Program-made: the position numbers and the translations under genes | In this document: in pieces, positions 1,561 through 11,238 of the stretch | Position numbering within the stretch: position 1 is the first letter of the stretch | How the letters are laid out: each line of letters starts with the position of its first letter | Notes under the pieces: generated by a model | The model's input: the letters and a program-made list of their open reading frames with translations, nothing else | Told to the model about the DNA's origin: nothing | Databases searched by the model: none | Assembly (NCBI GenBank): GCA_016840065.1 | Contig: JAEOTB010000117.1 | Location: 1 to 31,135, forward strand | DNA: 31,135 nt | DNA from: Candidatus Hermodarchaeota archaeon | GTDB lineage: Archaea > Asgardarchaeota > Hermodarchaeia > Hermodarchaeales > Hermodarchaeaceae | Direction of reading: 5' to 3'

Positions 1561-2547
1561 TCATGTTTTGAGGAGGAGCGCGGTCTTCGCTATCCCCTTG
1601 TTGATTGTCAGGATAGTTCCGCAGGCCTCTAGAATAATCTGTACGATCACCGAGTCTTTCATGACGTCGACGATGGTTTCGGTTTGCCGTTTCCAGAGCT
1701 GAAGGAGGGGGATCTCCCCAAGGACCTGGTAGACGACCTCCTTGTTTCGCTGGAGGAACGCGGATATCGTCTTTTTGAGGTTGTCATAAATCTTGCTCAG
1801 GGCCGCTTCTGCAAATACTGCTTGGTCGGGTGGTGGCTGGCGCCGGGTCAACGCCTCAGCGATTATGTATATGTTCTCGTAGATGTTGCTCAACTGTACG
1901 ATGTAGTGGGCGTTGTCGAAGATGTCTTCGATTTCCAGCTTCAGTCCTGGTGGAGGTATACTAAGGGCTTTCCTCAGTTCCCGCTGGACGCGAAGATAGT
2001 TTCCTCTTTGCCGCCAAGCCTCATCTATTATGTCGCTGGCAATCCGAGCCGTCTCATCGGACCCACTCTTCAACCCCTTAACCAGCTTGTCTATCAACTC
2101 GAGGGTGGTCCGGCTACTTATCCTGACAAATTCCAATACGTCATCGCCGACAAGCCTGGTCACCGCTTTGACCACGACCCTCTTGTCAGTGGTTTCGATG
2201 ATTTCGAAGCCGGGGAGCTGATTGACGATCTTGATCAGCAGGTTGCTAACTGGTTCGCTGAAGGACCGGGCACTCTCAAGGATAAGCCGGTCATAGCCAT
2301 CAACATAGTAGTTCTCAAGCAGGATACTCAGCGTCTTCTCATCCTGCTCCACCAGCCGCACCGACGCCTCACGGAGCGCAGGCTTCTCAAGCAAATGGAG
2401 CGGAGCAACAAGAAGCCCCTCAGGACACTCCCGGAGCGACAAGTTCATCCCCTCCTTGACACCGTACTTGATCGTCCATTTACGTGGCAGACTCACCACA
2501 AGAGTCTCGCTTCGACCCCACCGGATAGCCTTCCTAAGAACATCCAT
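1561..2547 (-). CDS. AbrB/SpoVT-type DNA-binding domain + PhoU-like helical domain regulator (archaeal phosphate uptake regulator family)
   Basis: N-terminus RKAIRWGRSETLVVSLPRKW..KYGVKEGM matches the archaeal AbrB-PhoU pattern; YVDGYD, LPGFEIIE, helical C-terminus. Start moved from 2643 to ATG 2547, with TATA-like AATATTAAG about 35 nt upstream. Confidence 0.8.
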   Translation of the reverse strand: MDVLRKAIRWGRSETLVVSLPRKWTIKYGVKEGMNLSLRECPEGLLVAPLHLLEKPALREASVRLVEQDEKTLSILLENYYVDGYDRLILESARSFSEPVSNLLIKIVNQLPGFEIIETTDKRVVVKAVTRLVGDDVLEFVRISSRTTLELIDKLVKGLKSGSDETARIASDIIDEAWRQRGNYLRVQRELRKALSIPPPGLKLEIEDIFDNAHYIVQLSNIYENIYIIAEALTRRQPPPDQAVFAEAALSKIYDNLKKTISAFLQRNKEVVYQVLGEIPLLQLWKRQTETIVDVMKDSVIVQIILEACGTILTINKGIAKTALLLKT

Positions 2548-2643
2548 GATAATCTGATAAGACGTTGATAACCTCATCCCACTTAATATTGATGGGAAAG
2601 GAAAAACCGATACCCAACGAGGGACAGAACCCCCACTACACAT

Positions 2644-5754: not shown

Positions 5755-5861
5755 TGGTGGGCCGACGGGGATTTGAACCCCGGATCTCACGGATTTCCGC
5801 TATGAGACTCGGATTTCTCATGACCCGAACCGCGAATCATACCAATCTAGACCATCGACCC
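5755..5861 (-). tRNA. tRNA-Pro(CGG) with 30-nt intron (5794-5823) at position 37/38 and encoded CCA
   Basis: Acceptor stem GGGTCGA/TCGGCCC+ACCA; T-arm CGGGG-TTCAAAT-CCCCG; anticodon stem CGCGG/CCGTG with loop TT-CGG-G^T. Bulge-helix-bulge TTCG/CGGA with 3-nt bulges GG^T and AA^T; intron hairpin ATGAGA/TCTCAT. Confidence 0.95.
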
Positions 5862-6003: not shown

Positions 6004-6408
6004 GTGTTGATGAAGGAAGAAATATTGAGTGCAATTGAAGATGTGAAGCGGGAACGTAGTATTTCAGGATCGACGCTGGTTAAGTTAGATGGTATTTTAG
6101 GCGAACGGTTTTGGAAGGCACTTCAAGCGGTTACATCTTCTCTAGTGAAGAGATATCTTTTCGAGCCCAGCAATCGAGAGGTTTGGGTAGTCGTTGGTAA
6201 GAATCGCGACTATCAGGTGAATGACCTCTATTGTGACTGTGACGACTTCTACTTCAAGGTCGTTATCAAGCGTCGGGCAGAATCTTGTTACCATATATTG
6301 GCGAAGCTTTTGGCAGAAGCTCTCGAACTCTTCTCTGAAATCCGTGTAGGTGACGAGATGTACGATACTCTTAGGGAAGAATGGCGGATTCTTCCACAGA
6401 AACGATAG
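6004..6408 (+). CDS. SWIM zinc-finger protein, SWS1/ZSWIM7-like
   Basis: YCDCDDF..V...CYHILA (CxC-x15-CxH), preceded by KALQAV..PSNREVWVVVG..DY. Confidence 0.8.
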   Translation: MLMKEEILSAIEDVKRERSISGSTLVKLDGILGERFWKALQAVTSSLVKRYLFEPSNREVWVVVGKNRDYQVNDLYCDCDDFYFKVVIKRRAESCYHILAKLLAEALELFSEIRVGDEMYDTLREEWRILPQKR

Positions 6409-6436: not shown

Positions 6437-6450
6437 GAAACAGTTAAAAG
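6437..6450 (+). promoter_or_regulatory. Putative BRE/TATA for the micro-ORF at 6484
   Basis: GAAACAGTTAAAAG, followed by SD-like GCAGGTCA (6471-6478) ahead of GTG 6484. Confidence 0.45.
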
Positions 6451-6483
6451 ATGAAGCAAGTCAATGCAGGGCAGGTCACCAAA

Positions 6484-6591
6484 GTGAGTGTGTTCTTCCA
6501 GTTATATCTGATTTCAACTGTGGGCTTGAGTGTCCTTGCTGCGCTTCTTATCATAGTCTATCACATCTTGGCCGGGCAAGAAGAACAGTAG
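6484..6591 (+). CDS. 35-aa single-TM membrane micro-protein, OST4-like (absent from the supplied ORF track)
   Basis: MSVFFQLYLISTVGLSVLAALLIIVYHILAGQEEQ*; an in-frame ATG at 6451 would give 46 aa. Flanked by TATA, SD and a T-tract at 6614-6619. QL...hydrophobic...YH pattern resembles OST4. Confidence 0.6.
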   Translation: MSVFFQLYLISTVGLSVLAALLIIVYHILAGQEEQ

Positions 6592-6620
6592 CATCATCTT
6601 CATCCTAAGCTAGTTTTTTC

Positions 6621-6689: not shown

Positions 6690-8432
6690 ATGTCGCTCAA
6701 ACTTGATGCTATTATTGAGCTTATAGTCACAAAGTCTGGTAAAACAAAAGACGAAGTAATCAAGCTCATTGATGCGAAAAGGAAAGAACTCGATGGCTAT
6801 GTAACTGATGAGGGCGCAGCCTCCCTTGTAGCGCGTGAGCTAGATCTTGACCTTTTTGAGAAGCAATCAGCTCCAGAACTGAAGCTTTCAGTACGTGACC
6901 TAGTATCTGGGATGTCTGGTGTTTCACTAAATCTAAGGGTTCTACGCGTCTATCCTGTTCGAACGTTCACAAGGAAGCAGGGCGGCGAGGGGAAAGTAGC
7001 TAATGTGTTATGCTCAGATACAACAGGGTCTATTCGTCTGACGTTATGGTCACAGCATACAAAAATAATTTCGGACCGAGAAATCGAAGAGGGCGACATA
7101 ATCCGAGTAATAAATTGCCGGGTTAAAACTGGTCTACGAGAACAACTTGAACTCCACCTCGGAGTAGGCAGCCGTGTGATGATGAACCCCCCCGATGTCG
7201 ATGCGTCTGAGTTCCCCGAAGCAGCCTTGGTGTTTACTAAAATCGTAAATCTGAGAGAGGGGATGAGCGATGTTCATGTTCAGGGAACCATAAAGGCAAA
7301 GTACCGGAAAACCACCTTCAGCCGAGGAGAGAGTGAAGGAGTGGTTGCAAATCTTTCAATTGGAGATGAGTCAGGACAAACAAGACTAGTGCTCTGGGAT
7401 GAGCAAGCTGAGTGGTTTGACAAGATAGAGATTGATGATATGATCAGAGTTGAGAGTGGATATGTACGGCTCGACCGAAACAAGATACCTGAACTCCATG
7501 TTGGAAGAAGGGGGCGAATAACTCGTCATGGTGCTGCGACCGTTGAACGATCTGCTACTGCTCCTGCCAGAATGGTATTTCTTAAAGATATCAAAGCAGG
7601 AGATTACGTAACCGCGCTTGGAGTCATTGTAATAGCCAATCATGGAATCAAGACCTTCACTAGAAAAGATGGAAGCGAAGGAAAACGCCTCGTCCTTATT
7701 CTTGCCGATGGAACAGGCCAGGTCAGAGCTGTTGCGTGGGGGAGTGCTGCAGACGACCTTGCTGACTTGACTGAAGGTACATTACTAAAAATCGAAAACG
7801 CTGGATGCAGAGTAGGTCTCAACGAAGAACTTGAACTACACATTAACAAATGGACAAAGGTCAAGAGGAATCCATCAGGGCTTGAAATAGAATCTCCCTC
7901 CACAGAGCCGATAAGGACAGAGGGGAGCGTATCACAAAGCCAACTGCTTTCCGGTGTCACACAGGGAAACCAAGTTACGATTCGTGGAACTATCGTACAG
8001 GTTTTTCACCAAAAGAGCGTATACGATGCATGTCCAAAATGCTCTCGAAAGGTCACTATTAGTAATAGTACAACTACTTGTCCTAAATGCGGTAAAATCT
8101 CGCAATCAGTACCGAGAATCATTGCACAAATCATCATCGACGATGGAACCGAGAATATGCGTGCCCGGTTCATAGGTGCTCCCGCAGAGAAGCTGTTTGG
8201 GATGACCAGTACAGAGGCAAAGGCTATCGTAGAGGAGTCTGGCGAAGATGACGAACCTATCAGGAGAGTAGAAGAAAGCCTTCTAGGTAGAGAAATAGTG
8301 GTCTCGGGTCGAGTGCGACTAAATAACTTCTCGAATGAACTTGAAATCGCCGTAAATTCCGTTGAAGAACCAAACGCGATAGGTGAAGCGAAGCGTCTTG
8401 TTGAAGAGATAGAACGAGGAACTCAGACCTAG
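6690..8432 (+). CDS. rpa: Replication protein A large subunit (multi-OB-fold ssDNA-binding protein with Zn finger)
   Basis: Three OB repeats (F.R..G.EG.V..D.TG.IRL.LW) plus a C-terminal OB fold with CPKC..CPKC and IDDGT, as in RPA70 DBD-C. Confidence 0.92.
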   Translation: MSLKLDAIIELIVTKSGKTKDEVIKLIDAKRKELDGYVTDEGAASLVARELDLDLFEKQSAPELKLSVRDLVSGMSGVSLNLRVLRVYPVRTFTRKQGGEGKVANVLCSDTTGSIRLTLWSQHTKIISDREIEEGDIIRVINCRVKTGLREQLELHLGVGSRVMMNPPDVDASEFPEAALVFTKIVNLREGMSDVHVQGTIKAKYRKTTFSRGESEGVVANLSIGDESGQTRLVLWDEQAEWFDKIEIDDMIRVESGYVRLDRNKIPELHVGRRGRITRHGAATVERSATAPARMVFLKDIKAGDYVTALGVIVIANHGIKTFTRKDGSEGKRLVLILADGTGQVRAVAWGSAADDLADLTEGTLLKIENAGCRVGLNEELELHINKWTKVKRNPSGLEIESPSTEPIRTEGSVSQSQLLSGVTQGNQVTIRGTIVQVFHQKSVYDACPKCSRKVTISNSTTTCPKCGKISQSVPRIIAQIIIDDGTENMRARFIGAPAEKLFGMTSTEAKAIVEESGEDDEPIRRVEESLLGREIVVSGRVRLNNFSNELEIAVNSVEEPNAIGEAKRLVEEIERGTQT

Positions 8433-8487
8433 AGCCCTTATCCTTAAACCTAAATAGGATGACTGAATATTCTAATTGGGTAATAAA

Positions 8488-8742
8488 ATGGGTCGGCGAA
8501 GAAGAAAAATTACGCATAGGCGTCAAATCCGCACAACCCCTACGATTTTTGGATGTCCTAAATGCGGGCGTTCAGCCGTACGTGTAGAGCTAGATTACAA
8601 AGTTGGGCAAGGTTTGGTCTTTTGCGGCAACTGTGAGTGTCAGGCAACTATACCAATCACCTCGATAACCGAGCCAGTCGATGTTTATGGTGACTGGGTG
8701 GATATCGTCAGCCAAGAGCGGAAGGGAAGCGTCACTGAATAG
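8488..8742 (+). CDS. elf1: Transcription elongation factor Elf1
   Basis: MGRRRRK basic N-terminus, FGCPKCG..CGNC, TEPVDVYGDWVD signature; start set at ATG 8488. Confidence 0.9.
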   Translation: MGRRRRKITHRRQIRTTPTIFGCPKCGRSAVRVELDYKVGQGLVFCGNCECQATIPITSITEPVDVYGDWVDIVSQERKGSVTE

Positions 8743-8791: not shown

Positions 8792-9484
8792 ATGAAAGTA
8801 TGCTGTATAATCCCTGCCTATCAGGAATCACAGGCTATCGCACAAGTCGTAAGCACTACCAGACAGTACATTGATTGCGTTTTTGTAATAGATGATGGAA
8901 GTACTGATGGAACGGGTGATATCGCCCTAAAAAATGGGGCAGTTGTACTTCGACACCCAAGGAATATTGGTAAGGGTGCAGCTCTTAGAACTGGCTTCTG
9001 GAAAGCCCTTCAAACGGGGTGTGACATCATCATCACACTCGATGGGGATGGGCAACACGACCCACATCTCATACCACGATTTTTAATAAAAATCCGACAA
9101 GAAAGAGCTGATGTTGTTGTAGGATCCCGCTACACGACTTTAGCCGATAGTATGCCATTCTTTCGTAAACTTAGTAATTTGATGACTTCTAGGCTATTAC
9201 GGATATTCTTTAGGATACCAGTAACTGATTCGCAGAGCGGTTATAGGGCTTTCAGTAAGCGGATACTCAAATGGATTAAGGTTCGTGATAACGGGTTTGC
9301 CGCAGAGACAGAGATTTTAATCGATGCAAAGAGAGCTGGGGGTACTTTTGCTGAGGTCCCAATATCAACTATATATGGATCCGAGGAATCAAAGATTCGA
9401 GCTTCACGGGATATTGCTCGTTGGCTTTCCACTCTTTTTAGGAACTTCATTTATCGTGAACGCTTTGCACGCAAGATTGAGTAG
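8792..9484 (+). CDS. GT2 glycosyltransferase, dolichol-phosphate hexosyltransferase (DPM1-like)
   Basis: IIPAYQE, VIDDGSTDGT, NIGKGAA, TLDGDGQHDP, VVGSR, TDSQSGYRAF. Confidence 0.9.
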   Translation: MKVCCIIPAYQESQAIAQVVSTTRQYIDCVFVIDDGSTDGTGDIALKNGAVVLRHPRNIGKGAALRTGFWKALQTGCDIIITLDGDGQHDPHLIPRFLIKIRQERADVVVGSRYTTLADSMPFFRKLSNLMTSRLLRIFFRIPVTDSQSGYRAFSKRILKWIKVRDNGFAAETEILIDAKRAGGTFAEVPISTIYGSEESKIRASRDIARWLSTLFRNFIYRERFARKIE

Positions 9485-10416
9485 AGGAATAAGCCTACTC
9501 CTATGAGTAGCACTATTACTACGAATGTAAACCAGATTGGCGTCGGGTCGTAGATTTCTGATCTCGTCATCCAGTTGAATAGACGGTACCAGAGAATAGC
9601 ATTATCGCCTGATTGGAACCAGGAGCTGTTCAGCCCTGCACATAACGTGTCCGAGAACATGGTCGTTGATGAACACAATACAATACGAGCAGAACCTGTC
9701 GCAAAAGCAGCTAGCCAAGGTGGTTGTTCTTGTATGATTTGACCATCAATCGATACAGCCCGTGAGGAATTCGCTCCTCGGGAAACTACTAAGCTAGAAT
9801 CGTTAGTTGATAGTGAACCCCCTGCAATATAGACATCTCCGATTCCTGAAAAAATGGCTGCTTGGATTTCACTGGTTACTCCCGCTGAACTTATTCTAAC
9901 ATTGAAGGGAACAGTGATATTGTTCACTGGGTCTGTTATCGAATCGCCTTGAGTAGTGTTAGCTTTCTCAAAAGTAGTGAAGGAGACTCGGTTTTCCGAA
10001 ATTACACTGAGGATTTGGTTAAGCGCTTCCGGATTACCAATTTGCCTTTCGGCGATTTGGTAATCTCCGAGAAGGAATAGGGATCCTCCTTCTCCTACAA
10101 AGTCGGATATCGCTTCAAGCTCGGTTAATGAAAAATTGCGTCCAGGATTAGGAATTACTAAAACTTTAGCTCGATTGAGCGTAGTTGCATTTAGTTCTCC
10201 TTCATTGTGGATTCGAACGAAATATTCTGTATGAAACCTGAAGAAATTGATAGCCTGTGTGAAATTCTGCTTATCAATACTTAGCGGCTGGTCATGGCTC
10301 AAGTCAAAAACGATTGTCATTTGCCCCTCCTCGGGAAAGGCAACTGAACTATGGAAGGGCACAAGGAACACTAACAGCCCCAGCAATATCACAACAAGAC
10401 TCGTTCGGCGCAACAT
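9451..10416 (-). CDS. Secreted, C-terminally anchored GIFT/GldG-like (DUF4350-type) surface glycoprotein
   Basis: Signal peptide MLRRTSLVVILLGLLVFLVPFHSSVA; IVFDLSH..VLVIPNP..FS..E..AI..FV..GGSLFLLGD; C-terminal TM helix plus basic tail. Start ATG 10416 with SD GGTGGA. Confidence 0.65.
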   Translation of the reverse strand: MLRRTSLVVILLGLLVFLVPFHSSVAFPEEGQMTIVFDLSHDQPLSIDKQNFTQAINFFRFHTEYFVRIHNEGELNATTLNRAKVLVIPNPGRNFSLTELEAISDFVGEGGSLFLLGDYQIAERQIGNPEALNQILSVISENRVSFTTFEKANTTQGDSITDPVNNITVPFNVRISSAGVTSEIQAAIFSGIGDVYIAGGSLSTNDSSLVVSRGANSSRAVSIDGQIIQEQPPWLAAFATGSARIVLCSSTTMFSDTLCAGLNSSWFQSGDNAILWYRLFNWMTRSEIYDPTPIWFTFVVIVLLIGVGLFLYSILRAKRSR

Positions 10417-10566
10417 ATCCACCTTAAACCCTTTACTGGATAGAGCTAGGCAATCAGACAAGTCTCAGACTTTAAATCCTTTTCTAAAGTTTGCATGTTC
10501 TTGGTGGGAGTCATTCATTGACTTCATCCTTGCACAAAGAAATAAGAAGTCCCCCAACTATCAAGA

Positions 10567-11238
10567 ATGACAATGGCTGGTTCTAGGCTTGCTGCGGAAA
10601 TTCAGAGGAAGTTATTCCATTCGCTTATGGTGCTGGTAGCGGTAGTAAATTTGGTTGGTGGGCCTCCCCTTGCGATAGGGTTCGCAGGTATTTGTCTCGC
10701 TTTCTTTCTAGGGTTTGATTTCAGTCGGGTACGCGTTTACGGATACTTTCCCTTTCGACGAGTGACTGATCTTGTAATGCGTTCATCTGAACGAACACGG
10801 CTAGGTGCTAATGTGTTTTTCGCGGTGGGGACGATCTTCTCTCTACTGTTGCTCTATCTGTTGGGGTATTTTCTTCTCCAACTCGGGCTAACTTGTTATT
10901 GGATGCTCACTGGCTGGTTGGCGGTTAGCGCTGTCATAGTTTCTGCAATAGGTGATGGTGCAGCTGCGATTGTTGGTATGTCTATTGGGCGCCACAATTT
11001 AAGGAGAAACAGGACGGTCGAAGGGTCTATTGGTGGGTTCGTGTTCGGTTTTGTTGCATTCCTCGGACTTTCATATTTCATTGGTATTCCGTGGTTCTAC
11101 GGGTTCATCGCTGCTCTTATGTTAGTTCTAGTAGATGTAGTAGCGCTTTCGATTAATGATAATCTCATCAATCCCGTTGCTCTTGGGATAGTGCTTGCGA
11201 TATCAGAAATTATGTTCACGATTTTTGGAGTGGTGTGA
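10567..11238 (+). CDS. Dolichol/phytol kinase-like (CTP-dependent polyprenol kinase) membrane protein
   Basis: RKLFH, GDGAAAIVG..GRH..NRTVEGS, NDNL; multiple TM helices. Confidence 0.8.
   Translation: MTMAGSRLAAEIQRKLFHSLMVLVAVVNLVGGPPLAIGFAGICLAFFLGFDFSRVRVYGYFPFRRVTDLVMRSSERTRLGANVFFAVGTIFSLLLLYLLGYFLLQLGLTCYWMLTGWLAVSAVIVSAIGDGAAAIVGMSIGRHNLRRNRTVEGSIGGFVFGFVAFLGLSYFIGIPWFYGFIAALMLVLVDVVALSINDNLINPVALGIVLAISEIMFTIFGVV

Follow-up and report, generated by a model that had tools for sequence, protein, structure and literature searches.

A 35-residue, single-pass membrane micro-protein was found to be encoded in a 31,135-nucleotide stretch of Hermodarchaeota DNA (the whole stretch is referred to as the window) and is probably an Ost4-like partner of STT3/AglB, that is, an accessory subunit of oligosaccharyltransferase (OST). 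Among the subunits of the eukaryotic N-glycosylation enzyme OST4 is the smallest, and it is required for the stability of STT3 and for the recruitment of Ost3/6 (subcomplex II). The micro-gene and the elements around it were mapped on the forward strand as follows:

6004..6408, forward strand: SWIM-zinc-finger-like gene (134 aa; CxC...CxH motif; Pfam SWIM only at E=1.1), the constant upstream neighbour
6444..6449, forward strand: TATA-box-like TTAAAA, 35-40 nt 5' of the start codon, a putative promoter element
6466..6480, forward strand: conserved leader motif GCAGGGCAGGTCACC, containing GCAGGTCA (6471-6478)
6484..6591, forward strand: micro-protein ORF (35 aa, single TM; GTG start codon, TAG stop codon), kept in 18/18 family relatives
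6614..6619, forward strand: T6 tract, which may act as an oligo-T terminator of archaeal type

The reading frame proposed in the initial annotation (GTG6484 to TAG6591, forward strand) was present, and its translation was identical to the 35-aa peptide quoted there. In the program-made list of ORFs the same frame was extended to an in-frame ATG at 6451 (46 aa); this form was rejected, its start being unconserved and a same-genus relative carrying a stop codon between both starts. At the exact position of the window's GTG6484, an ATG was found in 16/18 relatives.

Forty related genomes were searched by tblastn and six-frame translation, and each of the 18 further genomes of the family, which comprises two genera, yielded an intact orthologue (E 1e-6 to 1e-17); beyond the family, this search of 40 genomes yielded no convincing orthologue. 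Each family genome carried one copy of the micro-gene at a fixed locus. Conservation among relatives with dN/dS<1 had been proposed as a check on the peptide, and both were borne out, the median dN/dS being 0.15 (Nei-Gojobori, 70 unsaturated orthologue pairs); in most of the remaining pairs the synonymous sites were saturated and the peptide was nonetheless retained. One alternative frame was stop-free in 0 orthologue pairs and the other in only 6, and variable sites were distributed over the three codon positions as 26/14/33 of 34. The amino-acid sequence is under strong purifying selection. In an alignment of 17 micro-protein orthologues (A1), residues M1, Q6, L22, I23, H27 and G31 were invariant within the family, and a [YF]-H pair, of which H27 is the invariant member, occupied positions 26-27 at the inner (cytoplasmic) end of the helix. 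The hydrophobic run extended from about residue 3 to residue 30, giving a single TM helix within the 35 aa.

The TATA-like box that had been noted at 6444-6449 was located there and had a counterpart in all family loci (TTAAAA or TTTAAA, 34-40 nt before the start codon in 19/19). The leader motif that follows it read GGCAGGTCACC in members of the genus, the sister genus having GGCAGAACGGTTC, with GGCAG..GGT conserved after the TATA-like box. The element previously called 'SD-like', GCAGGTCA, lies at 6471-6478 within this conserved motif; the label itself is unproven, since GCAGGTCA is a poor match to an archaeal Shine-Dalgarno sequence. The T6 tract was likewise present at 6614-6619, the downstream T-runs of the orthologues varying in position and being only loosely conserved, and no hairpin terminator was found downstream of the micro-gene. 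Box and leader motif together are consistent with an archaeal promoter followed by a short leader, and the micro-gene is most likely expressed independently, its product being a 35-residue single-pass membrane micro-protein.

Given these observations, it is very improbable that the ORF is no protein-coding gene at all, or that it encodes a type-I toxin or a regulatory leader peptide, or forms an exon spliced to the SWIM-like gene via a BHB intron. The ORF is very short and hydrophobic, as such readings would have it, and it lies in frame with the upstream SWIM-like ORF, as the exon reading would require; against them stand the strong purifying selection seen at the protein level, the conserved ATG and promoter box, and the single copy at a fixed locus in each genome. 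The spacer to the SWIM-like gene was found to contain two in-frame stops and to vary in length, and a BHB-intron or read-through fusion was rejected because neither a significant RNA fold or BHB-like structure (z = +1.0) nor an Rfam match was obtained for the leader/spacer region upstream of the micro-gene. The leader-peptide reading was dropped, since the gene lying downstream is not the same in the two genera and is convergent in the sister genus. The micro-gene is, then, almost certainly a genuine, conserved protein-coding gene.

The description of the gene as unannotated proved true in practice. A word-indexed search of 5.8 billion proteins with the 46-aa ORF as query returned one JGI hypothetical protein, and a full HMM search of 1.84 billion cluster representatives with the family HMM returned only 3 proteins, all from the same family. 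Micro-genes of this kind are almost never called, and published inventories of the Asgard OST may miss such a subunit, since it was represented by only 1 called protein among the 5.8 billion.

The surroundings of the micro-gene were compared across the family. The SWIM-like gene lay directly 5' of the micro-gene and on the same strand in 18/18 relatives. On the 3' side the following genes were mapped in the window:

6690-8432, forward strand: RPA of eukaryote type (three OB folds, Rep_fac-A_C domain)
8476-8742, forward strand: Elf1 zinc-ribbon elongation factor, following RPA

RPA was found 3' of the micro-gene only within the genus, the downstream gene of the sister genus being the convergent one mentioned above. 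RPA of eukaryote type and Elf1 are typical Asgard eukaryotic-signature genes. The neighbourhood (SWIM-like, RPA, Elf1) is a housekeeping one and contains no glycosylation operon. This arrangement, with a SWIM-like gene as the constant neighbour, is what might be expected if the micro-protein were a real small membrane protein with a different partner or role (e.g., a helix of a different membrane complex), in which case its likeness to OST4 would be generic and its docking (below) a product of model memory. Such an explanation is considered rather unlikely, for reasons that are given with the sequence comparison, the docking and the related micro-proteins.

The sequence comparison concerned eukaryotic OST4 (human, 37 aa; yeast Ost4p, 36 aa; Pfam PF10215; PDB 2LAT, 1RKL, 6EZN, 6C26, 6S7O and 6S7T). 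The human OST4 sequence that had been quoted in the initial annotation was exact when compared with 2LAT/6S7O, and the yeast sequence matched 1RKL/6XCR over the residues shown. The window peptide scored 11.9 bits (E=0.21) against Pfam Ost4 (PF10215), the sole Pfam family reported for it, and the profile match that had been suggested as a check was therefore missed, the gathering threshold being 25 bits. Matches to Pfam Ost4 at E<=10 were obtained for 4/17 orthologues and none for the other 13. In a six-frame Ost4 scan of the window's own genome, an unrelated 959-aa ORF was found to contain a TM segment with a higher score, and the same scan of 301 Asgard genomes gave nothing over the cut-off; the top matches in these 301 genomes had stops inside or lay within large TM proteins and were rejected as noise.

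Profile searches gave a similar result. The family profile A1 did not retrieve OST4 from the PDB at E<=10, and the best PDB profile matches, to TM helices of AcrB/MexB (AcrB at E=0.03), were judged to be chance. Exhaustive HMM searches linked the family only to Asgard micro-proteins, and a search of the ESM Atlas gave nothing scoring above 0.82 and no Ost4 lead. That every sequence test for OST4 fell below significance, and that the best PDB match was an unrelated AcrB helix of a sort that is matched easily, speaks for a membrane protein with another partner. In a direct comparison by hhalign, A1 was aligned to a two-sequence profile of human and yeast OST4 with 12% probability (P=0.0024, score 15.8, 17 columns), residues 14-30 being paired with OST4 13-29 and YH with YH. 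The score of 15.8 was reached by 3/400 full column shuffles and by 11/400 core-only shuffles, P-values that are optimistic because the ORF had been chosen for its resemblance to OST4. This order-specific signal, seldom matched by shuffles, is modest and counts against a merely generic likeness. Human and yeast OST4 themselves were matched at only E=0.067 in a PDB-wide search, so weak scores are to be expected even between true OST4 orthologues.

Several features were in common between the micro-protein and eukaryotic OST4: size (35 aa vs 36-37 aa), one TM helix, Q at position 6, a Tyr-His pair at the cytoplasmic end of the helix, a polar/acidic C-terminal tail, co-occurrence with STT3 and an Ost3/6-like protein, and a predicted seat at STT3 TM1/TM13 with the N-terminus outside. 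In the micro-protein, however, the distance from Q6 to YH differs by one residue, position 4 has no conserved acidic residue, and the tail is acidic (G-R-E-E-Q) where that of OST4 is rich in N/P/K. Of the shared features listed in the initial annotation, the length, the single TM helix and the [YF]-H at the inner end of the helix were upheld, and the Q-L pair was found to be conserved only inside the Hermodarchaeia family. The likeness to OST4 is too weak to serve as proof of common descent, the chances of which we would put at about even from the alignments.

The partners that an OST subunit would need were then sought in the family. STT3/AglB (~1015-1045 aa) was present in 18/19 family genomes and never in more than one copy each. 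The only STT3/AglB gene of the window's genome is cut by an assembly break, one part lying at the end of contig 78 and the other at the start of contig 102; both contig ends encode the same 42 residues, from which it follows that the two contigs abut. An Ost3/6-like protein of ~145 aa was present in 15/19 family genomes, in 11 of them above the Pfam cut-off; its match to Pfam OST3_OST6 was confined to the C-terminal 4-TM part, and it has no thioredoxin domain. Its gene was placed at, among others, the following positions:

L114:362-796, forward strand: Ost3/6-like gene in same-genus genome G001
L096:1453-1893: Ost3/6-like gene at a further locus

In the 6 genomes in which both genes were seen on one contig, 17-42 kb separated the Ost3/6-like gene from the micro-gene; the assembly to which the window belongs (84% complete) yielded no Ost3/6-like gene. 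A ribophorin-I-like protein was present in 3/19 family genomes, and searches of the window's own genome for Pfam ribophorin I and Ost5 gave nothing at the cut-off.

Docking of the window peptide (alignment A1) was predicted with the N-terminal 619 residues of a full-length same-genus STT3 (alignment A2), which is 82% identical to the copy of the window's genome and was substituted because the latter is split across two contigs. The complex prediction scored 0.79, a value read as support for binding, with 0.00 for the best of 3 controls, although the peptide controls were of undemonstrated TM-helix character. The mark applied is reached by 58/80 solved complexes and by 2/110 mismatched pairs, figures that hold only roughly here because own alignments were used in the docking. 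The runs agreed in at least 95% of contacts; pLDDT was >=82 for the partner and 82-83 for the peptide, which was modelled as a helix. Contacts on STT3 were predicted at residues 24-53 (TM1, the first TM helix, just before the conserved D62-P-W of EL1), at 456-467 and 492-511 (the end of TM12 and TM13, 492-511 lying in the last TM helix before WWDYG 557-561), and additionally at 153-166 and 526-530. Docking at the OST4 site of STT3/AglB, which had also been proposed as a check, was thus predicted between TM1 and TM13. In the closest pairs, residue 12 of the peptide faced STT3 45-46 and its residue 26 faced STT3 31-32, an order antiparallel to TM1. The N-terminus of STT3/AglB/PglB is cytoplasmic, and the antiparallel arrangement would accordingly place the peptide N-out/C-in.

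A review of the yeast cryo-EM structures depicts Ost4 as 'nestled between TMH1 and TMH13 of Stt3' and notes that Stt3-Ost4-Ost3 is destabilised by charge substitutions at positions 18-24 of Ost4 (PMC7226087). The invariant L22 and I23 of the micro-protein fall in the equivalent stretch. The predicted position and N-out topology of the helix coincide with the published Ost4 site and support the proposed identity. Since solved OST complexes exist, the docking pass may stem from model memory and would then indicate likeness instead of binding, a point in favour of another partner; the gap between the score of the pair and those of the three controls, together with the placement in the Ost4 groove in the Ost4 topology, points the other way.

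Related micro-proteins were sought across the phylum with A1, and weak matches fell in ORFs of 34-36 aa that belong to a different Asgard family (f27). An extended profile (A4) detected the micro-protein in 18/18 genomes of the Hermodarchaeia family (f1), in 8/11 genomes of f27 and in 2/2 genomes of one genus of f4; it detected none in the large Asgard families f6 and f9. The f27 micro-proteins (alignment A5) were homologous to A1 (hhalign, 96.5% probability, E 8.5e-10), gave no match to Pfam Ost4 and compared no better with human and yeast OST4 (hhalign, 3.5% probability). They are 34 aa long, with a consensus that begins M-I-D-x-N and ends G-Y-H-L-V-S-G-E-E-E-E, and share with the Hermodarchaeia peptide their size, the YH motif and an S/A-G-x-E-E tail; the N-terminus is different, the Q-L pair is not conserved, the alignment contains a five-column gap and the SWIM-like neighbour is missing. 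Because the f27 micro-protein is one residue shorter, its YH falls at 25-26, as in eukaryotes. Retention of [YF]-H in both Asgard families shown to be homologous argues against a partner other than STT3, an argument limited by a third, tentatively related Asgard group in which the His is kept in only 1/2 copies. The SWIM-like gene was absent beside the homologous micro-genes of other Asgard families, and its synteny was for that reason ruled out as a marker of orthology outside the family. In two of the f27 loci (of L105-L112), a Y-family DNA polymerase gene lay downstream of the micro-gene.

A longer related micro-ORF (44-48 aa) was observed in two copies 10 kb apart on contig 19 of genome G021 (36295-36405 and 45928-46038; L104), which belongs to a further Asgard family. 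In a second genome (L113), Asn stands in place of the YH-motif His.

Homologues of Ost4 and Ost5 have been reported 'in most Asgard archaeal classes' (Eme et al. 2023, Nature 618:992, PMC10307638) from a data set that includes Hermodarchaeia and by profile-profile methods; in the supplementary discussion of that study only Ost5 and WBP1 are named. The premise of the initial annotation, which knew of no OST4 among the OST subunits reported from Asgard archaea, is contradicted by this report, and the claim of an Asgard OST4 is itself not new, having been published in 2023 (PMC10307638). The identity proposed there, an Ost4 subunit of the Asgard OST, is the same as that proposed here, and the Hermodarchaeia micro-protein probably belongs to the same gene family. 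As an independent claim, the 2023 report also weighs against assignment of the micro-protein to a different membrane complex (PMC10307638). In a 2024 study of MK-D1, only OST1, OST3/6 and STT3 were listed (PMC11417166), an inventory that exemplifies how easily a micro-subunit is overlooked.

A functional analogue was also considered, that is, a micro-protein that binds STT3 and is of independent Asgard origin, having converged on the Ost4 site. The docking is supported and the homology is not, detection was confined to some Asgard families (those matched by A4 above), and the N-terminal motifs differ among these families and from eukaryotes, all of which would suit convergence. Peptides of ~35 aa, however, quickly diverge past the reach of HMMs, as the human-yeast comparison illustrates; size, topology, YH position and partner set (STT3 and the Ost3/6-like protein) are in common; and the published homologues cover most Asgard classes (PMC10307638). 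Convergence is accordingly regarded as improbable, more so than a different partner. The possible archaeal OST4 homologue of the initial annotation stands as a conserved micro-gene whose product is predicted to dock at the Ost4 site, with a sequence likeness that is below significance everywhere.

If the micro-protein is an Ost4-like subunit, its helix would insert N-out/C-in, pack into the TM1/TM13 groove of the single STT3/AglB and stabilise this catalytic subunit, and it would probably help to keep the short 4-TM Ost3/6-like protein of this family in place; the resulting complex would correspond, on the archaeal side, to eukaryotic OST subcomplex II (Stt3-Ost4-Ost3/6). More broadly, a minimal OST core of three parts, namely STT3, a helix of Ost4 type and an Ost3/6-like protein that lacks thioredoxin, may already be assembled in Hermodarchaeia and at least one further Asgard family, subcomplex II may predate eukaryogenesis as a physical complex, and systematic failure of gene callers to detect the micro-subunit may leave inventories of the MK-D1 type incomplete; this combined proposal is tentative and was rated slightly short of an even chance. 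The presence of OST4 in Asgard archaea bears on the extent of the pre-eukaryotic ER translocon/OST machinery. The overall picture is unchanged, the claim having been made in 2023, and what is added is a well-documented Hermodarchaeia member, with its conservation, selection, promoter element, predicted docking site and partner inventory.

The remainder of the window was also annotated. Genes for A-type ATPase subunits A and F, an HTH regulator and PolD DP2 were identified, and no Pfam family was assigned at E<=0.001 to the ORFs at 10567-11238 (forward strand, 223 aa) and 1561-2643 (reverse strand, 359 aa). Three further features were mapped:

8792-9484: GT2 glycosyltransferase, confirmed
9451-10461: GIFT-domain protein, confirmed, adjacent like the GT2 gene to the ORF at 10567-11238
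5758-5861, reverse strand: tRNA with an intron (Rfam, 42.3 bits)

ARAGORN reported no tRNA in the whole window. The Rfam match covered the full model (1-71) spread over 104 nt, which corresponds to an insert of ~33 nt.
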